NCBI RefSeq assembly: GCF_051307035.1
Contig: NZ_CP195537.1
Span: 11,126 to 43,125, forward strand
DNA from: Psychrobacter sp. DM4
Lineage (GTDB): Bacteria; Pseudomonadota; Gammaproteobacteria; Pseudomonadales; Moraxellaceae
Length of the DNA stretch: 32,000 nucleotides
Direction: 5' to 3'
The notes under the pieces were generated by a model. It searched no databases. It was not told where the DNA came from and worked only from the letters and a program-made list of their open reading frames with translations. A program made the translations under genes and the position numbers. Below, one piece after another: positions 1 to 31,975 of this stretch. Numbering within the stretch: position 1 is the first letter of the stretch; the number at the start of each line of letters is the position of its first letter.

Positions 1-682
1 GCGCTTGCAGACGATCTCTCTTTACATATCTACCTGCTTGTTCTCTAAAGTTAGCAGATGAAGGTGACGTTAAATACTCAGTAATTAGCAAACCTTGGTT
101 TTCAACAATTTCACGAGCCAAATCTATGTTTTGAGCTGGTAAGATATTATTTAACGGGCTGGGTAAGATAGCAACAGTTCGAGCGTTTAATGCTAGTGCC
201 TTTCTATGCGAGATGCTATCACAGCCATCTGCTAAGCCACTGACAATTGTGGCATCTTGTTTTTTGATGAACTGTTCAACTACCAGGTTTTCATCAACCT
301 CGGTTTCTTTATCTGGATTGAGCACACCAATAACAGCAACATTATAATTATCAGGAGATAGTAAATCCAAATCTCCTTTGTAGAACAAGAAGCTTGGGAT
401 ATCACCTTTTTTCTTTAGTTCTCGACGAAGAGTTGGGTAGTTATCATCGCCTATTGCTACCACACCATCACAACTATCGCCTAAGTTTTCAATCAAACGT
501 TCAAGCCTAGCCTTCATTTCTAAAAAAGCTTGCTCTGTTACGCTGGCATCCTTTGCCGCAATGAGCTCTACAATAGCTTCATAAGGGATCTTAGTTGTTA
601 GATTATTATTTAACCATGCCTCCCCTATACCTTTGAAGGTGCGAGCTGTTAAAACATTTAAAGCATGATCTGTTATTTTCAT
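1..682 (-). CDS. DprA/Smf-like (SLOG/Rossmann) protein, C-terminus cut by the window edge
   Basis: My own minus-strand translation from the ATG at 682-680 gives MKITDHALNVLTARTFKGIGEAWL...NVAVIGVLNPDKE...TIVSGLADGCDSISHRKALALNARTVAILPSPLNNILPAQN...GLLITEY...FREQAGRYVKRDRLQA. This matches DprA hallmarks (SGlAxGxDxxxHrxAL, tvAvL..l..i.P, F..RNR-like tail). It is absent from the ORF track because the frame stays open to position 1. Confidence 0.6.
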   Translation of the reverse strand, partial: MKITDHALNVLTARTFKGIGEAWLNNNLTTKIPYEAIVELIAAKDASVTEQAFLEMKARLERLIENLGDSCDGVVAIGDDNYPTLRRELKKKGDIPSFLFYKGDLDLLSPDNYNVAVIGVLNPDKETEVDENLVVEQFIKKQDATIVSGLADGCDSISHRKALALNARTVAILPSPLNNILPAQNIDLAREIVENQGLLITEYLTSPSSANFREQAGRYVKRDRLQA

Positions 683-720
683 TGAAAGCCTACTTGTAAA
701 AATATATTTATTTCAATAAT

Positions 721-1398
721 TTAGTTACGATTTGCAGCAAAAACTATTTCGTCTGGGAGGTCATCTGGAAACGTATAGTGTGGTACACGAGCAATGCTAA
801 AAAAAGTAACGTCCTTCGCACCACAATCTAATAGACATTGAATAGCATCTTCGTCTATATTGACATTTTTTGTATAAATATCATCAATTAATAGTACGTG
901 TTTTCCTCTTACTTTTTCCGAAATATCACAAGTATCTCTAGTAATACCGATATAAGGCATACTGCCACCTCCACCACCTATTGAACTACGAGATAAGTGA
1001 GTGGTACAGGTATCAGTATGACGAACTATAAAGTCGCTACCATCCACTAATTTATTCTTCGAATGTATGACCAACGGAATTATTTCTCTAATAGCTTCAG
1101 CAAACTTTAACTGTGTGCCATTGTAGGTATTGAGGTTTTTTGACCTAGGTACGACACATATAGTGACTTCATCATCTTCTATATTAGATAGTATGCTTGA
1201 AAGTTCATTTGCAAGATTGAACTTAACTGAGTTTTTAGCAGCTAATAATTTAGATGGGTACTCATTACCAAACGTGTTTTTTAAAATATTAAGATAGTTA
1301 GGGTTACTAGGTTTATTAAGCCCATAATATGCACAGCGATAGAATGATTTTATATCTTTGTTCAAATACTCGTTTTTTACGATGGTGTATTGATTCAC
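721..1398 (-). CDS. ComF-like phosphoribosyltransferase-fold protein with a degenerate PRPP loop
   Basis: 225-aa ORF with a GTG start and GAGGA 7 nt upstream. It has the ComF-like strand VTICVVPRSK and the PRTase acidic strand HVLLIDDIYT. The usual TTGxT loop reads TKNVN. Ends with ..VTFFSIAR. Confidence 0.6.
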   Translation of the reverse strand: MNQYTIVKNEYLNKDIKSFYRCAYYGLNKPSNPNYLNILKNTFGNEYPSKLLAAKNSVKFNLANELSSILSNIEDDEVTICVVPRSKNLNTYNGTQLKFAEAIREIIPLVIHSKNKLVDGSDFIVRHTDTCTTHLSRSSIGGGGGSMPYIGITRDTCDISEKVRGKHVLLIDDIYTKNVNIDEDAIQCLLDCGAKDVTFFSIARVPHYTFPDDLPDEIVFAANRN

Positions 1399-3794: not shown

Positions 3795-4388
3795 ATGACT
3801 GTTCGTATTTATGTGAGAGCCAGCACTAAGGATCAAGACGCTACCAGAGCATTGGCTGATTTGGTGGCTTTCAGTACAAGTTATGATGATAACCATGTTG
3901 AGTACGTCGAGCATTTCAGTGGTACAAAGCTCGATAGACCATTATTAGCCAAGCTGCTAAAGGACGCTGAGCAAGGCGATATTCTACTGGTTGAAAGCGT
4001 GGATAGATTAAGCCGATTATCTCAAGATGATTTTGCAATTCTAAAGCAGCGTATCAAAGACAAAGGCTTGCGATTGGTGGTGGCTGATCTACCAACGACG
4101 CATACAGTTAATAATGGCATGACAGGTGAGATCCTAACAGTGATTAACCATATGCTGATCGACTTATTAGCAACGATGGCAAAGCTTGATAACGACAAGC
4201 GTAGAGAGCGTATCAAGCAGGGATTGGCTAACAGTGGCTATAAGCCCTCCGGTAAGAAGCCTAATACAACGAAACACAATCGTATTAGAGAATTAGACAG
4301 TCAAGGCAATATGACAAAAGAGGAAATCGCTAAGGCAGTTGGTGTTGGCGTAGCTACTGTTTACCGGGTGTTAAAGCCAGGCTCATAG
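3795..4388 (+). CDS. serine recombinase (resolvase/invertase family)
   Basis: N-terminal RIYVRASTKDQ carries the catalytic Ser, followed by LLVESVDRLSR. The C-terminal HTH is MTKEEIAKAVGVGVATVYRVLK. Confidence 0.85.
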   Translation: MTVRIYVRASTKDQDATRALADLVAFSTSYDDNHVEYVEHFSGTKLDRPLLAKLLKDAEQGDILLVESVDRLSRLSQDDFAILKQRIKDKGLRLVVADLPTTHTVNNGMTGEILTVINHMLIDLLATMAKLDNDKRRERIKQGLANSGYKPSGKKPNTTKHNRIRELDSQGNMTKEEIAKAVGVGVATVYRVLKPGS

Positions 4389-4694: not shown

Positions 4695-6278
4695 ATGATG
4701 AACACCCCTACCTCAGACCCTATTGGCGCAGCATGGCTTATCCGTCATGCAAGCATCGAGCTGGTTTCGCCTTTATATGTCAGCAGTAGTATCGGTGGGC
4801 GCAGACAAACCTATAAAGACGGTGACGTCATTCATAACGCTTATCAGGAAACCGCGCGTCCACTGGACACAATCATTGCGCACTTACAATTTCACATGCG
4901 TCATGAAGTACTGAGTTTAGAGTTACTGACTCGTCTGTTTGAGCAGATAGGGGCTGATGATGTACAAGCATGGGTAAACGCTGAGCCCACAGGCAGCTAT
5001 GCCCGTAGAATGGCTTTCTTGTATGAATGGCTCATGGGTCAGCAGTTAGCAGTACCGAGTAATTTAGGCGGTAACTATGTGGACGCTTTAGATGCTAAGA
5101 AGCAGGTTACTTCAAGCCCTGCGCATGTCATCAAGAATGCTCGTTGGCGTATCAATGACAATCTAGCAGGAACCCGTCATTTCTGTCCGATACTGGTGAA
5201 AACAGAGGCCTTTACGCAAGCAGCTGCACTCGATATTGCCACAATGGTTGACAAACTTAACGATGAATTTGGGCAAGACTTACTGATGCGCGCCTCCGTA
5301 TGGATGACCCTACGGGAAAGCAAAGCGAGCTTTACTATAGAAGGTGAGGGAAAAGAGTTAAAACGTATTGAACGTTTTGCCGATGTAATGGCACGGCGTA
5401 CCGGCAAGGGCGATATTCCGCTTGATCCTGAGTCGCTAGCAGAGTTGCAACAAGAGATACTTGGTAGCAAAACGGTCATCCAGCAGTATGGCGTCCGTCA
5501 ATCTCCAGTTTTTGTGTCGCATACTCAGGTCAATGGCTTTAAAGAGATTGTGCACTATATTGCGCCACCTGCTGATGACATTGCTGAAAAGCTCAAAGGG
5601 TTACAGGCATTTATGGAAAAGACCGAGGGACAATCGGCACTGATACGTAGTGCGGTTGCTTCCTTTGCTTTTGTGTATATTCATCCGCTAGCGGATGGCA
5701 ATGGCCGAGTACATCGCTTCCTAATTAACGATGTACTCAGACGCGACCAGATCATTCATGAGCCGATTATCTTACCTATATCGCAAGCCATCGCTGAGCA
5801 TCCCTCAGACCGTCATGCCTATGATAAAATTTTAGACCGTGTATCCGTGCCACTTATGGAGCAAATCCGTGATCATTACAGCTTTGATAAACAAGCGATT
5901 ACTTACCCTGATGGTATTCGCTCAAACTTAAATTTTGGAAATACTCACCTAATTCAACCTGCATGGCGCTTTATGGATCTAACGCCTCACGTTCAGTACT
6001 TATCAGGACTCATTGCTCATGTTATTGAAAAAGAGATGCATAACGAGTCACAGTACCTAAGAAAGCATGACCATGCACGACTGGCGATAAAAGAGATTGT
6101 TGAGATGCCCAACAGCTATGCCGATAGAATCATTCGCAGTATGCTGCAAAATAAGGGTGCTAAAAGTAATAAGTTACTTAAGGATTATCCATTTTTAACA
6201 AATGATGAGGTTTGGGACGATATTTTCTCTGTCGTTGTAGAGACCTTTAAAGATGAGACAGATGAATTGAATAGGTAG
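4695..6278 (+). CDS. Fic-domain protein (class II architecture, putative AMPylase)
   Basis: The Fic motif HPLADGNGRVHR lies at nt 5682-5717. The inhibitory-helix motif SFTIEG ([S/T]xxxE[G/N]) lies at nt 5328-5345, N-terminal to the core. Confidence 0.85.
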   Translation: MMNTPTSDPIGAAWLIRHASIELVSPLYVSSSIGGRRQTYKDGDVIHNAYQETARPLDTIIAHLQFHMRHEVLSLELLTRLFEQIGADDVQAWVNAEPTGSYARRMAFLYEWLMGQQLAVPSNLGGNYVDALDAKKQVTSSPAHVIKNARWRINDNLAGTRHFCPILVKTEAFTQAAALDIATMVDKLNDEFGQDLLMRASVWMTLRESKASFTIEGEGKELKRIERFADVMARRTGKGDIPLDPESLAELQQEILGSKTVIQQYGVRQSPVFVSHTQVNGFKEIVHYIAPPADDIAEKLKGLQAFMEKTEGQSALIRSAVASFAFVYIHPLADGNGRVHRFLINDVLRRDQIIHEPIILPISQAIAEHPSDRHAYDKILDRVSVPLMEQIRDHYSFDKQAITYPDGIRSNLNFGNTHLIQPAWRFMDLTPHVQYLSGLIAHVIEKEMHNESQYLRKHDHARLAIKEIVEMPNSYADRIIRSMLQNKGAKSNKLLKDYPFLTNDEVWDDIFSVVVETFKDETDELNR

Positions 6279-6500
6279 AACAGACCCTGCTATATGCAAG
6301 AAAATCTGCCTTGATAATCAAGCTTAAGCTAGTATCAGTATCATCGTTGCGATAATGATTCGTTTATAAAAGATTCGGCTAAAATACTGTAACTTGAAAC
6401 GTAATCAATATTTTTCTTACTTAAACAGAATATATTAGAGGAACTTTGATAACAGACCATTTTTATTTGACAAGGTTATTACAGATCCTCAAAATAATTT

Positions 6501-6692
6501 TGAGTATTTGAGTATTTGAGTATTTGAGTATTTGAGTATTTGAGTATTTGAGTATTTGAGTATTTGAGTATTTGAGTATTTGAGTATTTGAGTATTTGAG
6601 TATTTGAGTATTTGAGTATTTGAGTATTTGAGTATTTGAGTATTTGAGTATTTGAGTATTTGAGTATTTGAGTATTTGAGTATTTGAGTATT
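6501..6692. repeat. perfect tandem array, 24 x 8 bp (TGAGTATT; ACTCAAAT on the other strand)
   Basis: Counted directly: 192 bp with no visible variant units. Confidence 0.95.
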
Positions 6693-6699
6693 TATTTAG

Positions 6700-7290
6700 C
6701 TATACAGCTATCAAATGACGCGAGCACTTAGCTGTAGCTTGTATTTCAGAATAACTACGCCCAGATTTCAGAAGGCTAGCGATAATCTTACGCTTCTCGG
6801 TATCTTTCCTACGTCCTGAATATTTACTTTCTACCTTAGTACGAGAAATACCTTACATCTGACGGTTACGTCGATCTTCATAGTCCTTTCTAGCAATAGC
6901 AGCGAGCATATCAAGCATCATCGAATTAATGGACTGTAATACGCTGCTCATAAATTCAGTGCTGCTCTCAGATTGAGGCGTCATATAAGAGGTCGGTAGC
7001 TCTTCTGATACTACCGCCAGCTTCTTTTCTAATAGCATTCTTTTGAGAGTATCCCAATCAGCTTGGTTTAAACGTGCTAAGCGGTCAATCTGCTCAACCA
7101 AATTATATCGCCTTCATGGGCATCATTTATCAGTTACATTAACTGTGGACGTATTAAAGTTGCGTCTGACTCGTTTTCAACATAGAAGGCGGCAATTTTG
7201 TGACCATGATCAGCAGCAAGCTATATGAGCTCACTTTTGGCACGCTTGGCATCTTGATCTTTGATTGGCGCTCTATGCTCTGATAAACAT
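6700..7290 (-). pseudogene. decayed serine recombinase (resolvase) gene
   Basis: The minus-strand pieces are MFIRA / RAPIKDQDAKRAKSELI* / LAADHGHKIAAFYVENESDATLIRPQLM* / ..EQIDRLARLNQADW..ARKDYEDRRNRQM* / GISRTKVESKYSGRRKDTEKRKIIASLLKSGRSYSEIQATAKCSRHLIAV*. They lie in different frames with internal stops. The catalytic position reads RAP instead of RAS. Confidence 0.8.
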
Positions 7291-22087: not shown

Positions 22088-22957
22088 TGAACCGCCCCGA
22101 CTATATCGGAGGCTGATCTACTTGAGTCAGGCAGCGATGCCTGACAGGGTTAAATTATCATAATACCGCTTTTCAAACTCAAAGGGTGACACATATCCAA
22201 TCGTGCTATGTAGACGCTTCTTGTTGAACCAATCCACCCACTCAAGGGTTGCCAGTTCAACATCGTTCACACCAGTCCAGTTCTGCTTTAAATAATGAAT
22301 CACCTCAGACTTGTAAAGCCCATTGACCGTTTCAGCCAATGCATTGTCGTATGAATCGCCTGTTGTACCAACAGAAGCAATCACGCCAGAGTCCGTCATC
22401 TTATCGGTATAGCGAATAGATAAGTACTGAACCCCTCGATCACTGTGATGAATGACATCCTTAGGGTTGTTCCTGTCTGCTATCGCCTGATTTAGCGCAG
22501 CCATAACCATATCGGTATTCATGCGATTCGATACTTTCCAGCCCACAATAGCGCGAGCAAATACATCAATAATAAAAGCGGTATATACCCAGCCGCTAGT
22601 TGTTTTTATATAGGTGAAGTCAGCTACCCAAAGCTGATTGGGTTGACGTGCATTAAAGTTACGATTGACTAGGTCATCAGCGCGTTTTTGGTCGTCACGG
22701 CTGTTGGTGGTAATCTTACCCTTACCGCGCCAGACACCTTGCATACCATACTGCTTCATTAAACGCTCTACGGTGCAACGAGCAACCTTTACGCCATCAG
22801 CCTTCATCTGCTGCCAGACTTTACGAACACCGTAACGGCATTTACTGTCCTGCCAGATATGTTTGATTTCGCTGATGTAGAAGTCGTCATGCTGACTGCG
22901 TAATGAACCGCCCTGAGATTGTCGGAGACTCAACATCCTGAGAGAATACGACAATAA
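22088..22957 (-). mobile_element. truncated IS3-family insertion sequence (orfB end only)
   Basis: The terminus TGAACCGCCCCGAC.. starts at 22088 (an IS3-type TG end) with orfB inside. orfA and the other inverted repeat are missing. The sequence switches abruptly at about 22957-22963 to the fic-upstream repeat. Confidence 0.75.
22127..22954 (-). pseudogene. IS3-family DDE transposase OrfB, N-terminally truncated and lacking OrfA
   Basis: WVADFTYI (D), HHSDRGVQY (D) and DNALAETVNGLYKSE (E). The ORF begins with TTG at the truncation point. Confidence 0.8.
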
Positions 22958-23084: not shown

Positions 23085-23132
23085 TATGAGTATATGAGTA
23101 TATGAGTATATGAGTATATGAGTATATGAGTA
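23085..23132. repeat. tandem array, 6 x 8 bp (TATGAGTA; ACTCATAT on the other strand)
   Basis: Counted directly. Confidence 0.9.
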
Positions 23133-23267
23133 AAATTTGTTTCTTTCGACAATATAAGGCGGCAAACGTGCCAAGAAATTTAAACTAAGATCAATATGTC
23201 AGCTTTCATATGTACGTTTTAAAAAGATACATGAAGACATATCAAATTATCCCTTTGCTTCTTACTA

Positions 23268-23340
23268 ATATATGTACAGATATAAGTACAGATATAGTAT
23301 ATACTAGTATAACATTCAACCTATAATGATAGGTCATATA
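23268..23340 (+). promoter_or_regulatory. candidate yefM-yoeB promoter/operator
   Basis: TGTACA (23273-23278) and AGTACA (23285-23290) sit 12 bp apart inside the direct repeat GTACAGATATA x2. TATAAT lies at 23332-23337. TGTACA cores are known YefM-YoeB operator elements. Confidence 0.4.
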
Positions 23341-23982: not shown

Positions 23983-24156
23983 TTAATGTCCAGAAACGTT
24001 CTTTAATTCTTGAGACATCTCAGCAATCAACTGACGCGAGTACTTAGCCACGATTTGTATTTCAGAATAGCTATGGTCAACCTTTAAGAGACTTGCGATG
24101 ATTTGACGCTTCTTAGTAACGGGTCTACGGCTTCTATGTTTATTTTCTGCTTTAGC
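23983..24156 (-). pseudogene. 3'-terminal remnant of a third serine recombinase gene
   Basis: The minus strand encodes AKAENKHRSRRPVTKKRQIIASLLKVDHSYSEIQIVAKYSRQLIAEMSQELKNVSGH*. It is collinear with the C-terminus of the 6700-7290 pseudogene (TKVESKYSGRRKDTEKRKIIASLLKSGRSYSEIQ..). There is no N-terminal part, and a stop lies directly upstream. Confidence 0.7.
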
Positions 24157-24209
24157 CTAAGTAATTTAAAAATGCCCTAGATATTAAAAACCTAATCTAT
24201 ATGACAAAC

Positions 24210-26784: not shown

Positions 26785-27000
26785 TCAATCAGTATGCTCT
26801 TTATAGATTGGCAATTCATCTTGACTGACAGCTGCTACTTTCTGATACTCAAAAGATAGTGGCACTTTATTGGTTTGCGCCACTTGAGTTAAGAACAATT
26901 TGATTGCTTGAGACGGCGTTAATCCATAGCTTTCAAACACGGCAAAGGCGCTATCCTTGAGCTCTTGATCGAGCCTGATATTATAATTGGTTGTCGTCAT
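26785..27000 (-). CDS. RelB/DinJ-family RHH antitoxin-like protein
   Basis: MTTTNYNIRLDQELKDSAFAVFESYGLTPSQAIKLFLTQVAQTNKVP matches the DinJ pattern. It ends 8 nt before the brnT start. Confidence 0.75.
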   Translation of the reverse strand: MTTTNYNIRLDQELKDSAFAVFESYGLTPSQAIKLFLTQVAQTNKVPLSFEYQKVAAVSQDELPIYKEHTD

Positions 27001-27080
27001 GGCATTACAAATGGCTTATATATGTACGTACAATATAAACCATTTGTAATGCCAAAACTACTAAGCATGCTTTTTTCATA

Positions 27081-28034
27081 TTATGATTTCTGCTTAGGGA
27101 ACGTATAGCCTATCGCCAGTAAGTGCTTTTTGTGGGTCTTTAAAAAAGCCTCATCTCTTAATTGAGTGTGTAACCAACTAATAACTTCTTGAGTGCTTTT
27201 ACCTGATGGTGCGTAACTACCAAACGGTGAGTAGTTAGCCAACAAAGGGGCAAAACGATCAATTTGCTTAACGGTTAGAGGTGGGATATCTCTATCCTCA
27301 TTATTCTGATTTAAGCCCTCCTGTCCTTTTTTCTTAGTTGGCTTGGCCTTGACGGTGAATGTCAAACCTGTAACTGTGCGTCCACGTTTGATGTTTTCAT
27401 AGGTGATTTTGATGTCGGTTTTCTGATTAATTTCTTTTATGGGCCCATCAACTGCATTCTCTTTCAAATTGTTGATGCGCTCATACGACTTAGGCGTGCC
27501 AAGTTCTTGCCTATATTGATCTAAAGTCATAGAAAAACCACCCTTCCCCTCAGACTTTTTTGCTAGATGGTAAAGGTCTAACGAGTAAGTCAATTTGAGG
27601 TTTAAGATATCTTCTTTTAAATATTTAGTGTAAGGGTTGAGCTTATCAAAAACCTGAAGTAAGTATATTACCTCATCTGTAAAATGCATCGATATATAGC
27701 CATCTGCATATTTCGACCTGATTAGCCATTGAACCTCTGTATCATCACCATCCTTATCCTCATAAATGAATGTACGCTTCATTAATTTTTTGCTAGCTGA
27801 TTTCATTTGCTTATAAGCCGAGTTTCTATCTATTCCGCTAAGCTTAGCAAATTCAGAAGACGCAACCTCTATCGGTGTTTTTTCAGTAGCATTATTAACC
27901 CTAACCAATGGGCTCGCTAGAATAATGATGCGCTTCTCATCAATAGACATCTCTCTAAAAGCTTGAGTAATTTTATTCTGCATAACAATCCATTTTTCAG
28001 GATATTTTTTTTCGTATAGCTCGACATCATTCAT
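27081..28034 (-). CDS. rep: Rep_3-family plasmid replication initiator
   Basis: VMQNKITQAFREMSIDEKRIIILA..., YTKYLKEDILNLKLTYSLDLYHLAKK, INQKTDIKITYENIKRGRTVTGLTFTV. Iterons lie directly upstream. Confidence 0.85.
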   Translation of the reverse strand: MNDVELYEKKYPEKWIVMQNKITQAFREMSIDEKRIIILASPLVRVNNATEKTPIEVASSEFAKLSGIDRNSAYKQMKSASKKLMKRTFIYEDKDGDDTEVQWLIRSKYADGYISMHFTDEVIYLLQVFDKLNPYTKYLKEDILNLKLTYSLDLYHLAKKSEGKGGFSMTLDQYRQELGTPKSYERINNLKENAVDGPIKEINQKTDIKITYENIKRGRTVTGLTFTVKAKPTKKKGQEGLNQNNEDRDIPPLTVKQIDRFAPLLANYSPFGSYAPSGKSTQEVISWLHTQLRDEAFLKTHKKHLLAIGYTFPKQKS

Positions 28035-28068
28035 TATGACAACCTCATTATGCTAGTTACTTTAAGAT

Positions 28069-28290
28069 ACTAGCATAATGCGGGATAAAAGTAGCATTTA
28101 AACGGGATAAAAGTAGCATAATGCGGGATAAAAGTAGCATAATGCGGGATAAAAGTAGCATAATAGAGTGCGTAACCCTTTAATAGCAAAGCTTACAGAC
28201 TGTCTAAAAGTCTTTAAAAGTTTTTAAAAGTAAAAAATATATTTTTATTTTAAATAATAAGGAAAAAACCAAAAAACCGACGGATTTAAA
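28069..28290. other. oriV: four 21-22-bp iterons plus an AT-rich region
   Basis: Iterons ATGCGGGATAAAAGTAGCAT(A/TT) lie at 28078-28099, 28100-28120 (AAACGGG variant), 28121-28141 and 28142-28162, with a partial copy at 28069-28077. They are followed by TAAAAGT x3 with 11-bp phasing (about 28204-28235) and A/T runs. Confidence 0.8.
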
Positions 28291-28363
28291 ATGATAATTT
28301 GATCGACCAATCACTTGTAAAACTGATCAGTAGCTCAGAATGCAATTGTCCATTTACTTAATG

Positions 28364-28555
28364 TTATTCCACGTTCGCATGGTTCGGATCAAGCTTAGAT
28401 CTTTGAAGATCTTCAAAAGCATGGTCAAAGATATTTTGAATATCTTCGTCTGTCATTCTGGACAACCCTGTTTCCACATTCTCAATATCAGTCTCATTTT
28501 TTGTAGATAGTTTGCCTTCATTTTCAGTAGCCATTGTTGATACCCCTGCAAACAT
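28364..28555 (-). CDS. small acidic hypothetical protein
   Basis: 63-aa ORF with no recognisable motif. Confidence 0.25.
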   Translation of the reverse strand: MFAGVSTMATENEGKLSTKNETDIENVETGLSRMTDEDIQNIFDHAFEDLQRSKLDPNHANVE

Positions 28556-28732
28556 CTCTCAAAGTACTGCTAAAACGCTCAAAAACCCCTCTTATATGCA
28601 TTTTAAGCTCTGTTCGATATGATGGTAGCTAAAACCATTTTAAAACGCTTAAAACAGCCGATAATCGCCTCCTGATCTTTCGCTAATTAGCAGATGATCA
28701 AGCTGTACCGTCAATTAGGTAATTTCTAGAAG

Positions 28733-29074
28733 CTACTGCGCTGATGAATCATCATCAAACAATGAACCGTGCTCATTGTCATGATTGTCCTTAGGGGGCG
28801 TAAAGCTGCTTGGTGCTACCTGAGCTTTACTTTGTATTTTATTGGCAATTGCTTTCAAAAACTCACGGTGTTTTTTTAAACGAACGTAACTTTCATTATC
28901 ATGTGCGTCTAAAAATATGGCTTGTAGCTCATGATTTTCATCATCGTCTAATGCGTTGGCCAACCATTCTCCCAACATCTGATATGCCTCAAGTCTGTCC
29001 TGATTGATTTCTTTTTTAATAGCCTGTAGCTGCTTTATCTTATCTGCGAATAGATCATCTGATATTACTGACAT
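28733..29074 (-). CDS. hypothetical protein divergent from mobA (possible relaxosome accessory protein by position only)
   Basis: 113 aa, transcribed divergently from the oriT/mobA region as RSF1010 mobC is. I did not see a MobC motif. Confidence 0.35.
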   Translation of the reverse strand: MSVISDDLFADKIKQLQAIKKEINQDRLEAYQMLGEWLANALDDDENHELQAIFLDAHDNESYVRLKKHREFLKAIANKIQSKAQVAPSSFTPPKDNHDNEHGSLFDDDSSAQ

Positions 29075-29099
29075 TATCTCATCCTTTTCTAGTCAACTA

Positions 29100-29338
29100 T
29101 GATAGAGTTGATCCTAGCAGTGTACACATAGGGATGCAAGGTAGTAAAATACACAAGGCCACATCGTTTCGTGGGCGCAGTAGTATTTTAACCCTCTGTT
29201 AAGAGCGAACTTAGGAGTTTGTGTAAAAAAGACCCACAAGGGGTACTATTTTTTTACATAAACTCCGTCGTTCGGCAGGGGGCGAACCCCCTACAACCCC
29301 CCCCCAAAAATCATCTCTCAATATTGGGTTTTTTTGCT
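29100..29338. other. candidate oriT / mobA control region
   Basis: Lies between the divergent genes. Contains the nested hairpin GTAAAAAAgACCCacaaGGGGTactaTTTTTTAC (29223-29257), the hairpin AGGGGGcgaaCCCCCT (29277-29292) and a C9A5 tract (29297-29310). The nic site was not identified. Confidence 0.4.
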
Positions 29339-31975
29339 ATGAATAATAAAGGGTTTCATCTGTCGGTTAGCGCCGTTAGTAAGGCGAAAAATCATAGTGT
29401 GGTGGCAAAGTCGGCTTATAATTCTGGCTCAAAACTGGTTGATGAGCAGTCAGGAGTCGTCCACGATTATACCAGTAAAGCTAAAGACAAAATCTTAAAC
29501 TTAGTGGACAGTGATGGCACTAAATACACGCAAGTTATTGAGAAAAATGTGATGCATACGGCGTTGATAACGCCAACTCTTGCTGGGGATCTAGCAGTGA
29601 CACGTGAGGGTTTTTGGAATGATATCGAACGCATTGAGACTCGTAAAAACGCGCAATTGGGTACTGAGATTGACGTGATGTTTCCTGATGGGATCACCGC
29701 GGATCAGCGTATAGTTCTGGCCGAGCGCTACGCTCAAACCTTATCTGATCGCTATAACGTGCTTGTCGATGTGGCCATTCATCGGCCCCACAGTCACGAG
29801 AAACATGTGGGGGAGGTTGAAGTGGTTGAGCTGACCAGTCGTAACTTTCATGCCCATATTTTACTCTCAAGCCGTGAGATAGTAGCGGATGTTGAGGGTT
29901 ATGCTTTATCAGCACGCAAGAATTGGTTGCAGTGGTCAACGGAGGAGCGTTTATCTAAGGGGTTAAACGGGCGCGGCGATGAGCTTAAATATCAACGCAC
30001 CCTTTGGGCGGATATGGCCAATGAGCTACTGCCTGAGAATAAAACCATTAGTGAGAAATCCTACCGTGAGCTGGGCATCAGTCGTTTACCAAAAATGAAA
30101 CTGGGTAAATCACTATATAAGGATATTCTCAAAGGCAATCGTTCAGTGATTCACGAGTACAACGAGACGATTGATGAGATCAATGCTTACATTGAAAAAA
30201 ATGGTTTAGTAATTGAGTACGACGACAAGGGACGTATTGACCTAGAAAGCAATGAACAAGAGGTTAACGGCGTCACAATACATTATAAAAAGCGTAAACC
30301 CTTTGCGCGAATTGAGCTCAGTAATATCCGATTTGTAGATCCTGCCGTTGAACTTGAACCCGCTATCCCTAAAAGTAACAGTCAGACGCATAGTGATGCG
30401 GCCAATGATCACGCACTTGATGAGCTTTTAGCAATCTCAGCCGACTTTGTGAGTCAAAAAAAGATGGTACGCAGCGCCTTATTTTCAACCATTGATGCGC
30501 TGCATGAAGAGTTAGCGCACCAGTCTAAACAGATTATTACTATTGATAAAAACATTAAGAGTACCCAGCGGTTCACCGAGGAGGTGGGACAGGATTTTAG
30601 TGACCCCCGCCAAAAAATGATTGAGCTTGCCAGGCAGATAAGCACAAAAGAGCAAAGTGAGGCACTAAAGGCGGCTTTAGCGTTGGTTGAGGAGTTTAGA
30701 CAAGATGATACCCTACAAACAGGCCGCGCTGTTAGCCGTCTTGAAGAGCAGCTGTCACAGATTGATAAAACGGTGCTGAACAATAAAACGGTTTTAAAAA
30801 AGCTGATCCCGCTTAATAATGAAGTCATTGCTGACTACAAAGGGTTGAAGGCCACGCTAAAACCCTTTGCCGCAAAGCTGAATAAACTGGCGACTGGCTT
30901 TAAAGCTCTTGATGAGATTGATGTTGAAAAAACTGAGCTGCAGCGACACTGGCGCGAAGCGTTTGAGGATTTGCAGGCGATCGAGGTAACGAGCAACCTT
31001 GATACCTATCATAAGTTCGCGGCACTGGCAGATCTTGATGTTGGGCGTTTTAAAGCGCTTGAGCAAGAGCATGAGGCGCTGCGTGCTCTTAAAGCGGTAG
31101 AGATAGATGATACCGCTGAGGCACGTTTGAAGATACTTGTATCTGATGTAAAGACATTTAAAACCGCCAATAATGAAGACATCAAAAAACTAAGGCAGCA
31201 AATCAATACCAGTGAAAAAACCTATCAACGCCTATCGCCATTTTATGAGCAGCGTATCGCCCTTCTTGATCAAAGTGAAGCGGTCATTGTGCAAGATGAC
31301 GACTTATACGATGAGATTACCCGTACCAAGACCACTCAATTGAACGCAGACCGGCTTGATGACTGGCGTAACCGTACGATGGCGCTCCAATACCAGCTCA
31401 ACAAAGCGCATGAGCAAGCAAAGCTTAAGGAAGAGGCTGAGCGCGCAAGAGAGGATGCTTTGACAAAACGGCGATTAACCTTACAAAAGAGGCGTGAGCA
31501 GGTAACCCTGAAGCGTCAACGAATCAATGAGACGAAAGCGTATCGAGATCGGTTTGATAATTTGGTGGTGCGAGTACGTGACCGTGTTGATGCCCTTGAT
31601 GTCAAGGCCATTGATGCACCGATTGAGGTAATTAAAGCGGCTGAAGCGGTTGCAGAGCACTCTCTTATATTGCACACCCTAAAACGTACTGACAGTTTTA
31701 CGGCGCTGCAGAAAAGCTTACGAAACACCGATGCCGAAAAAGCAACAGCGCATGTGCAGCAGGCAGCAACGTCGCTATGGCAGCAGCTTGAGCGCTTACC
31801 TGACAATCAAGAGAAGATCGAGGTGTTAACCCAAATCAATAAGCGCTTTGAGCACGTTCCTGCTATCACAATAGGTGCGGCAACGCTCACGCAAACCGTG
31901 ACAGAGCAACTGCAAAAAACAAAGAGTGCTATACAAACGCAAAATCGTAGCTACTCATCCCCAAGCCCGTTTTAA
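29339..31975 (+). CDS. mobA: MOBQ-type relaxase (MobA/MobL family) with a long coiled-coil C-terminal region
   Basis: FHLSVSAVSKAKNHSVVAKSAYNSGSKLVDEQSGVVHDYTSK (motif I region) and IHRPHSH...NFHAHILLSSR (His motif). The start is set at ATG 29339. The ORF-track N-terminal extension from TTG 29219 runs through the hairpins and the poly-C tract, so I consider it unlikely. Confidence 0.8.
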   Translation: MNNKGFHLSVSAVSKAKNHSVVAKSAYNSGSKLVDEQSGVVHDYTSKAKDKILNLVDSDGTKYTQVIEKNVMHTALITPTLAGDLAVTREGFWNDIERIETRKNAQLGTEIDVMFPDGITADQRIVLAERYAQTLSDRYNVLVDVAIHRPHSHEKHVGEVEVVELTSRNFHAHILLSSREIVADVEGYALSARKNWLQWSTEERLSKGLNGRGDELKYQRTLWADMANELLPENKTISEKSYRELGISRLPKMKLGKSLYKDILKGNRSVIHEYNETIDEINAYIEKNGLVIEYDDKGRIDLESNEQEVNGVTIHYKKRKPFARIELSNIRFVDPAVELEPAIPKSNSQTHSDAANDHALDELLAISADFVSQKKMVRSALFSTIDALHEELAHQSKQIITIDKNIKSTQRFTEEVGQDFSDPRQKMIELARQISTKEQSEALKAALALVEEFRQDDTLQTGRAVSRLEEQLSQIDKTVLNNKTVLKKLIPLNNEVIADYKGLKATLKPFAAKLNKLATGFKALDEIDVEKTELQRHWREAFEDLQAIEVTSNLDTYHKFAALADLDVGRFKALEQEHEALRALKAVEIDDTAEARLKILVSDVKTFKTANNEDIKKLRQQINTSEKTYQRLSPFYEQRIALLDQSEAVIVQDDDLYDEITRTKTTQLNADRLDDWRNRTMALQYQLNKAHEQAKLKEEAERAREDALTKRRLTLQKRREQVTLKRQRINETKAYRDRFDNLVVRVRDRVDALDVKAIDAPIEVIKAAEAVAEHSLILHTLKRTDSFTALQKSLRNTDAEKATAHVQQAATSLWQQLERLPDNQEKIEVLTQINKRFEHVPAITIGAATLTQTVTEQLQKTKSAIQTQNRSYSSPSPF

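Follow-up and report, generated by a model that had tools for sequence, protein, structure and literature searches.

A probable ParG-box array detached from its partition genes on a Psychrobacter plasmid

Partition of plasmid TP228 (ParF-ParG, type Ib) depends on sites of simple design: in both the centromere parH and the operator OF, 5'-ACTC-3' boxes alternate with 4-bp AT-rich spacers, and both sites are coated by ParG, with one dimer per box (PMC3130281). Ribbon-helix-helix (RHH) ParB proteins need at least four contiguous repeats to activate ParA, and the RHH protein omega of pSM19035, a centromere-binding protein as well as a repressor, has several parS arrays of 7 to 10 repeats of the 7-bp sequence WATCACW (PMC9499535). 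For Psychrobacter plasmid pP62BP1, Lasek et al. (2012) reported 17 copies of AATACTCA located between the -10 box of parA and its ribosome-binding site (RBS), and they interpreted these as the putative parS of a type Ib partition system in which ParB carries a ParG domain; “to our surprise,” identical repeats, 12 in number, turned up on plasmid 1 of strain K5 at the 3' terminus of the res pseudogene Pcryo_2479, and a further distal array was noted in pP62BP1 (PMC3346939). The repeats of pP32BP2 have been described likewise, again with the parA -10 box on one side and the RBS on the other (PMC3346939; PMC6579772). Here, we analyzed a 32,000-nucleotide stretch of Psychrobacter sp. DM4 (NZ_CP195537.1; the whole stretch is referred to as the window, and all coordinates are relative to it) in which a perfect array of 8-bp units, array A, lies between a fic gene and a resolvase pseudogene. 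The K5 repeats at Pcryo_2479 are the same locus as array A. We consider array A to be a ParG-box array, that is, a cis site of the parS/parH type, that belongs to type Ib ParA-ParG systems and has become detached from parA-parG, and we assign this reading, together with the mechanism proposed below, a probability of about 0.6.

Array A occupies positions 6499 to 6693 and comprises 24.4 perfect 8-bp units, reading TTTGAGTA on the plus strand and ACTCAAAT on the minus strand. Tandem Repeats Finder reports a period of 8, 24.4 copies, 100% matches, 0 indels, and a score of 390, and direct reading of the letters gives unbroken TGAGTATT units across 6501 to 6692. On the minus strand, these are 24 consecutive ACTC boxes, each with the 4-bp AT spacer AAAT. 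An earlier annotation made from the letters alone, here called the sequence-only reading, had reported a perfect 24 × 8-bp array at 6501 to 6692 with an ACTC box and a 4-bp AT spacer per unit on the other strand, flanked by the 3' region of fic and a resolvase pseudogene, and had compared it with the ACTC boxes, 4-bp AT-rich spacers, and ParG of TP228. Array and box design were both reproduced, the flanks were identified by Pfam Fic and by tblastn with ORF19 of pP62BP1, and the comparison agrees with the published description of TP228 (PMC3130281). A two-unit pattern allowing up to 2 mismatches has 29 matches in the window against 0.46 expected, and 0 of 100 dinucleotide shuffles reach 29. Array A has the tandem identical 8-bp AATACTCA units that characterize the pP62BP1 type of putative parS, with 24 units here versus 17 in pP62BP1, and it lies elsewhere than between the -10 box and the RBS of parA.

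The same unit stands directly in front of partition genes in relatives. We scanned species-representative genomes for five phased ACTC-W4 units (L-numbers denote the loci or contigs) and metagenomes for loci with at least five ACTCAAAT units (n = 89). In Psychrobacter contigs from the first scan, (ACTCAAAT)n ends 17 to 20 bp before the ATG that opens MKVIAVLNQKGGSGKTT; this gene encodes a ParA of 212 amino acids (aa) with the Walker A motif KGGSGKT (NCBIfam ParA_partition equivalog, E = 7.5e-81), and directly downstream of it is encoded a protein of 70 aa (67 to 70 aa among homologues) whose N-terminal tail is disordered and whose core is of the RHH type. Arrays of ACTCAAAT are found 17 to 24 bp upstream of parA-parG in L121, L024, pP32BP2, pP62BP1, and 13 metagenome contigs. 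Among the 89 metagenome loci, parA is 17 to 24 bp downstream on the same strand in 13, a 37 to 44% identical ParA is 16 to 17 bp from the array in a further 8, and the array is just downstream of parG in a few. Phased ACTC or ACTT boxes lie upstream of all Psychrobacter parA-parG operons examined, as a perfect 8-bp array in every case except the K5 plasmid, where the boxes upstream of parA are degenerate ACTC boxes in direct and inverted orientation. The proximal units are ACTCAAAT in L121 (10 copies), L024 (13 copies), pP32BP2 (8 copies), pP62BP1 (17 copies), and L131, and ACTTATAT in pPspP11G5a (23 copies), pWB2 (∼18 copies), L132 to L139 (7 to 15 copies), L128, and L130; ACTT and ACTC units also occur mixed within single arrays.

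The small proteins encoded downstream of parA are homologues of ParG. A small-protein tblastn search of plasmids returned genes named “plasmid partition protein ParG” by RefSeq on 20 Psychrobacter plasmids, which include most of the array-bearing ones. Pfam ParG was matched by all 6 of the homologues tested (best E = 2.4e-5), one ParG homologue also matches Pfam Omega_Repress, and a profile of the Psychrobacter homologues searched against the PDB had a single match below E = 0.2, namely, TP228 ParG (1P94; E = 1.7e-4). The NCBIfam search of the homologues gave no match at E ≤ 0.01, so membership of the ParG family is drawn from Pfam, the PDB profile match, and the RefSeq naming. The β-strand pattern K-x-x-R-V-N is invariant in all homologues and in TP228 ParG, and the strand RVNFN[I/L]D is the same in operons with ACTCAAAT, ACTTATAT, or degenerate boxes. 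The parH-like identity that the sequence-only reading had proposed is therefore supported, the unit ACTCAAAT being shared with parA-proximal arrays and the proteins encoded downstream of those arrays being ParG homologues.

Beyond the Psychrobacter lineage, the ACTC-W4 motif alone is not diagnostic, because the five-unit scan also returned many Bacteroidota and other loci that have no detectable ParA of the Psychrobacter type. Several outlying loci do combine boxes with partition genes. Acinetobacter sp. MB5 (L101, L095) has degenerate boxes upstream of parA, 10 units of ACTCAATT downstream of parG, and a further 6 units of ACTCAATT ∼13 kb away. Enterovibrio plasmid pCC2 (L068) has 9 units of GAGTAATT right before a parA related to that of Psychrobacter, and the chromosome of Bacteroidetes UKL13-3 (L058) has 48 phased boxes, with units ACTCATTT and ACTCATTC, ∼400 bp from a 25% identical ParA-like match. 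The degenerate proximal site and perfect arrays elsewhere in both the K5 plasmid and Acinetobacter MB5 suggest a possible division into operator and centromere, as in TP228.

Related plasmids have array A itself at the corresponding position, in each case built of perfect units, whose number differs: 24 in the window, 22 each in pPspP11G5a and Acinetobacter p10FS3-1-2, 12 each in the Psychrobacter cryohalolentis K5 and WY6 plasmids, 6 in pP32BP2, and 6 to 20 in window-like metagenome contigs. Across more than 25 related loci, there are 5 to 24 units between flanks that diverge by 5 to 20%, which bears out the earlier expectation that copy number may vary. The constant left partner of the array is the gene for a 197-aa serine resolvase, intact in the window (3795 to 4388, plus strand; Pfam Resolvase and HTH_7). 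Relatives of this resolvase at 83 to 92% lie 121 to 208 bp from the array in 9 metagenome loci without fic, and loci of the L079/L164 type have the order res, TTGACAA, array at the same place beside DUF3817-lspA, again without fic. The fic gene (4695 to 6278, plus strand; 527-aa product), whose stop is 220 bp to the left of array A, is present in window-like loci and absent from those of the L079/L164 type, and it is evidently an optional insert of the res-array module. Wherever fic occurs, it is accompanied by the 197-aa resolvase gene and array A; its product gives a full-length match to the PADLOC candidate defense family PDC-S24 (E = 3e-176) and a weaker one to SoFic. In the fic-less locus, the 8-bp array is followed by 4 to 6 units of 9 bp (ACTCAAAAT), a change of phase seen at positions 2110 to 2140 of L079 and 2870 to 2920 of L164.

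Two further loci have the resolvase gene beside partition genes. In L215, (ACTCAAAT)23-parA-parG is followed directly by a 96% identical res, and in the 8,024-bp contig L024 of Psychrobacter sp. T6-5, the order is array, parA, parG, two genes, res, fic, TTGACAAG, array, with the two arrays mutually inverted. Because of these orders and that of the fic-less loci, array A would be the far, inverted array of a ACTCAAAT-type par unit, the parAG part of which is missing here. Wherever distal and parA-proximal arrays can both be oriented (pPspP11G5a, the K5 plasmid, pP32BP2, pWB2, and L024), the distal one runs opposite to the proximal one, and the window is counted with them, its proximal orientation being predicted by synteny. 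L024 ends in inverted ACTCAAAT arrays at both ends, and perfect inverted homology of 70 to 190 bp could allow inversion of the segment between two such arrays.

To the right of array A, from position 6706, is the pseudogene of a resolvase of the pP62BP1 ORF19 type (6706 to 7290, minus strand; tblastn). It is spread over two frames, with in-frame stops and a frame change, and has 86% aa identity with ORF19 over 6706 to 7101 and 70% over 7086 to 7274. Homology stops at ...KCSRHLIA, and the 13 further residues of the intact protein are lost at the array A junction; the right flank of the array is evidently a recombination joint inside another resolvase gene. On the K5 plasmid, a further deletion extends from the array into the pseudogene.

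A second array, absent from the list of the sequence-only reading, was recognized ∼190 bp upstream of the phd/yoeB open reading frame (ORF). This array B (23085 to 23134, minus strand; Tandem Repeats Finder and sequence) has 6 perfect units, ACTCATAT on the minus strand and TATGAGTA on the plus strand, versus 7 in pSIT2, 19 in pVan23-1, and 34 in pWB2, with flanks that are 99% identical. The parA-proximal ACTTATAT arrays of L134, L137, and L138 have ACTCATAT units scattered among their own, and we predict that array B is a second array of the ParG-box type. Some of the pWB2 units read CACTCATA, with the ACTC box kept. Separate from array B and just upstream of phd/yoeB, at 23268 to 23296, are 12-bp GTAC-core repeats (ATATAAGTACAG, 2.4 copies), which we take to have the look of a YefM/Axe-type antitoxin operator; given this separate repeat, Phd/YefM was rejected as the protein that binds array B.

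Directly observed are the identity of the unit with that of parA-proximal arrays, the synteny, the homology to ParG, and the variation in copy number. In the mechanism that we propose, by homology to TP228, one RHH dimer of ParG would occupy each ACTC box, reading it via the β-sheet; the 8-bp phasing would bring neighboring dimers into contact, such that up to 24 dimers could coat 192 bp, and the coated array would recruit and stimulate the ParF-like ATPase ParA. Array A would have arrived with the res-(fic) accessory module. Because the same β-strand is found across operons with ACTCAAAT, ACTTATAT, and degenerate boxes, the plasmid's own ParG probably also binds arrays A and B, which would then be secondary centromeres or sites that titrate ParG. 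Array A may also be an operator over the adjoining TTGACA-17-CAAAAT promoter, and its copy number would drift through replication slippage. We regard it as very probable that array A is, in its origin and its layout, a ParG-box array; binding by ParG, by way of cross-recognition, with present consequences in this plasmid, has a chance that is even or a little better.

Several observations weigh against the ParG-box reading. No ParA or ParG was found in the 32-kb window by Pfam scans or by tblastn with Psychrobacter ParA and ParG at E ≤ 10, in agreement with the earlier statement that the window has no visible ParA/ParF gene. There is no parA immediately beside array A, and the nearest predicted one is >27 kb away along the window, unlike in TP228, where the site is directly upstream of parFG and overlaps the promoter/operator of these genes. 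The array sits between two convergent gene ends and has no downstream gene to regulate. The WY6 plasmid has array A but no ParA or ParG, and in an Acinetobacter plasmid, array A has insertion sequence (IS) elements on both sides; array A can therefore persist without a partner in cis. Plasmid pPspP2G3a, with an intact copy of the pseudogene's resolvase and the same metal/ccm module, has neither the array nor par genes. Slippage alone can keep perfect repeats homogeneous, and the literature grades the Psychrobacter arrays as “putative parS” (PMC3346939). Finally, the presence of parA and parG on this replicon is deduced from synteny, and the predicted cognate unit ACTTATAT differs from the unit of array A at three bases, one in the box and two in the spacer, so cross-binding by ParG is an assumption.

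All 8 contigs with an identical Rep protein (L132 to L139) carry array-parA-parG ∼2.2 kb past mobA, in the order rep, mobA, a gene for 318 aa, a 91-aa ORF, HTH_26, the 8-bp array, parA (212 aa), and parG (69 aa), and the gene order of pPspP11G5a is the same. The window aligns with these contigs at 92 to 95% from 27001 to 31941, up to 59 bp from its end, with mobA (29219 to 31975, plus strand; a MobA/MobL relaxase) as the synteny anchor. We predict that parA-parG of this plasmid lies ∼2.2 kb beyond the right edge of the window and that its proximal array consists of ACTTATAT units. Of the candidate binders that the sequence-only reading had named, a ParG-like protein encoded outside the window is the one supported by these Rep-identical contigs.

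Much of the same evidence can be read as the trace of a lost system. Array A could be a nonfunctional relic of a ACTCAAAT-type par unit, from which parA-parG was lost by IS insertion or recombination, that is carried along with res-fic and homogenized by slippage. Its correspondence to the inverted far end of the par unit in L024, with the parAG part missing here, would fit, as would the recombination joint that truncates the resolvase gene on one flank, the K5 deletion from the array into the pseudogene, and the occurrence of the array on the par-less WY6 plasmid and on an IS-bracketed Acinetobacter fragment. The 9-bp units of L079 and L164 disrupt the 8-bp phasing, and pPspP2G3a manages without the array. 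Against decay, 5 to 24 perfect units are kept in >25 loci, the flanks of which have diverged by 5 to 20%; most carrier plasmids also encode a ParG with the same β-strand, and distal perfect arrays recur in the independent systems of K5, pP62BP1, and Acinetobacter MB5. We consider a relic unlikely.

The surroundings of array A also invite a regulatory interpretation. A promoter-like element, TTGACA-17-CAAAAT (6467 to 6495, plus strand; 10/12 in a consensus scan), ends 3 bp before array A and points into it. Among 8 loci, the longest stretch left unchanged in the homologous flank, in its part next to the array, is TTTGACAAG; YAAAAT recurs 17 to 18 bp downstream of it across the 8 diverged flanks. 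The element precedes array A with the units in the opposite orientation to the pP62BP1 layout and without a gene behind it. In the promoter scans, the number of promoter-like matches in the regions concerned did not exceed that expected by chance, so the idea of a promoter draws on the conservation of the flank; the element may be a promoter controlled by ParG. More broadly, ParG could be a global repressor like omega of pSM19035, with the 6467-to-6495 promoter and the phd/yoeB region under its control, which would link partition with other maintenance modules and overlaps the ParG-box reading. The conserved TTGACA-17/18-YAAAAT upstream of array A recalls the layout at parA, where the -10 box is followed by the repeats and then by the RBS; parAG, res, and the phd/yoeB toxin-antitoxin pair, three maintenance modules, are each provided with an array of their own; in pSM19035, the copS, delta, and omega promoters are all overlapped by parS arrays; and one ParG homologue matches Omega_Repress. 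Such a regulon is nevertheless improbable, since a transcript from the promoter at array A would have no gene downstream and would be antisense to the pseudogene, array B ends ∼135 bp upstream of the operator-like GTAC repeats of the toxin-antitoxin pair (23268 to 23296), and the promoter-like matches do not exceed chance.

A site that acts on the partition machinery of another replicon is a further alternative: the carrier might ride on the ParA-ParG of a coresident ACTCAAAT-type plasmid or titrate the ParG of that plasmid, giving centromere-based incompatibility. The unit of array A matches the proximal parS of another Psychrobacter par subtype and not that of the subtype predicted for this backbone, array A occurs on the par-less WY6 plasmid, and pSIT2 has array B while the ParG gene found in its strain is carried by the strain's other plasmid. 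Incompatibility with a cloned REP+PAR fragment has been exploited to cure pP32BP2, the source of the fragment. In strain P11G5, however, the only ParG found among the plasmids is of the ACTTATAT type and is encoded on the same plasmid as the array, and we hold action in trans to be distinctly improbable.

The sequence-only reading had also proposed binding by one of two RHH proteins encoded in the window, the RelB/DinJ-like protein at 26785 to 27000 or the 153-aa protein at 2450 to 2911, and this part of it did not stand. Both have RHH-type matches, and the RelB-like gene, which lacks a neighboring toxin gene, comes after rep in every related backbone. But neither protein is related to ParG, the former being a RelB/DinJ family member with an hhalign probability of 0.2% against the ParG profile; the β-strands differ, the arrays covary across loci with parA-parG rather than with these genes, and array A is also present in plasmids of other backbones. 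We rejected both as binders and consider this explanation very improbable. The orphan RelB/DinJ-family gene, directly downstream of rep, is kept at the same place in 8 of 8 Rep-identical contigs, which suggests that it may have a role in replication control or regulation rather than as an antitoxin.

An ordinary microsatellite or contingency locus without a protein partner (a phase-variable promoter spacer or a coding repeat) is hardly credible despite the perfect repeats, their highly variable copy number, and an annotation of K5 that once put the repeats inside a coding sequence, since the array falls outside any ORF and outside the stretch from a -35 to a -10 element, the ACTCAAAT unit has a fixed place upstream of parA in many plasmids, and the box-plus-spacer design is that of an experimentally defined protein-binding site in TP228. 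As a coding repeat, array A was rejected because, while the minus strand is open through it, the res frame ends ahead of the array, which no start codon precedes; as a contingency locus, because no ORF spans it and it starts 3 bp past the -10-like hexamer, outside the -35/-10 spacer. Replication iterons, repeats of 17 to 22 bp that adjoin rep and are bound by Rep, were rejected as well, the units being 8 bp long and 20 kb from the Rep_3 gene and its 21- to 22-bp repeats.

Returning to the ParG-box reading, its widest form is unlikely: ParG might stand at the center of a network of hypervariable ParG-box arrays that spans the plasmid and is tied to distinct maintenance or accessory modules, namely, parAG, res-fic (array A), and phd/yoeB (array B), with the orphan arrays as portable centromeres or ParG sinks. 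If so, accessory modules and par-less plasmids could use or sabotage the partition machinery of other replicons, and perfect inverted homology would drive the exchange of modules and inversion between plasmids. If ParG binds the arrays, this plasmid would have at least three separate ParG-box arrays whose copy number varies freely, and one of these would come from another par subtype. It would then be a natural system for asking how RHH centromere proteins discriminate between near-identical sites (ACTC versus ACTT, and spacers), how repeat number relates to partition-complex strength and incompatibility, and whether accessory modules carry centromere-like sites of their own. The arrays also have practical consequences: they break short-read assemblies, with several of the contigs examined ending inside them, and they have been annotated as coding sequence, so their recognition improves the annotation of Moraxellaceae plasmids.

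The window as a whole derives from a Psychrobacter plasmid, for which the best match is pPspP11G5a (∼95% identity over 69% of the 24.6 kb queried). It has a Rep_3 gene (27081 to 28034), next to which are 4.4 copies of iteron-like repeats of 21 to 22 bp (28071 to 28164), and further content comprises a KfrA-like gene, the phd/yoeB toxin-antitoxin pair, and metal-resistance and cytochrome c maturation cargo. Besides the intact resolvase gene and the pseudogene at array A, there is a third resolvase sequence, also decayed, between yoeB and the kfrA-like gene (24007 to 24165, minus strand), which retains the C-terminal part and has an internal stop. A 5'-truncated IS3-family element with orfB alone (22088 to 22954) ends at ∼22906; the same truncation end lies 0 to 60 bp from ACTCAAAT arrays in L092 and pP32BP2 (L007), and the homology boundary at 22904 to 22905 is common to three plasmids with different left contexts, which suggests a possible recombination hot spot near the arrays. 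At the left end of the window (2 to 1398, minus strand) is a Shosta-like antiphage pair, in which a partial ShosA resembling DprA (PADLOC, E = 3.5e-43; Pfam DNA_processg_A) is joined by a ShosT-like phosphoribosyltransferase (E = 6.5e-12). Beside it are genes for a HAD hydrolase, an unknown 125-aa protein, and the 153-aa RHH-like protein (1413 to 2911).

How the locus relates to described systems can be stated feature by feature. In par2 of pB171, a type Ib system with an RHH ParB, the centromere sites parC1 and parC2 flank parAB, both of them adjacent to the par genes. Two arrays likewise bracket the par-res-fic unit of L024, where the ACTCAAAT arrays are inverted, and the repeat sequence differs from that of pB171. 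The pSM19035 system is alike in having contiguous short repeats at several places on one plasmid, all of them bound there by a single RHH protein, and differs from array A in its unit, its 7-bp period, and its protein family; each of its arrays lies over a known promoter, whereas no gene follows array A. The unit AATACTCA is identical in pP62BP1 and pP32BP2; there it is placed at parA, whereas here and in K5 it is detached from parA. What is already known is the interpretation of the AATACTCA repeats as a putative parS and the existence of this orphan locus in K5 (Lasek et al. 2012). The papers on pP62BP1 and pP32BP2 draw no link from the unit to the ACTC-box rule of TP228, and a literature search with the bare 8-mers returned only unrelated primer matches. 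Our comparisons add that the unit obeys the TP228 rule, that several unit subtypes go with one shared ParG β-strand, that orphan arrays are common and hypervariable, and that array A probably derives from a two-array par unit.

TP228 offers the fullest comparison. Both sites have ACTC boxes and 4-bp AT-rich spacers, mostly in direct orientation; TP228 ParG and its Psychrobacter homologues share the K-x-x-RVN β-strand and the combination of a flexible tail with an RHH fold, and in TP228 as in the Psychrobacter relatives, the partner is a small Walker ATPase. The degenerate proximal boxes of K5, direct and inverted, resemble TP228 OF. TP228, however, has 12 plus 8 degenerate boxes directly upstream of parFG, whereas array A has 24 identical units, is kilobases away from par genes, is flanked by fic and a resolvase pseudogene, and ranges from 5 to 24 copies, as a predicted counterpart of the ParG site described there.

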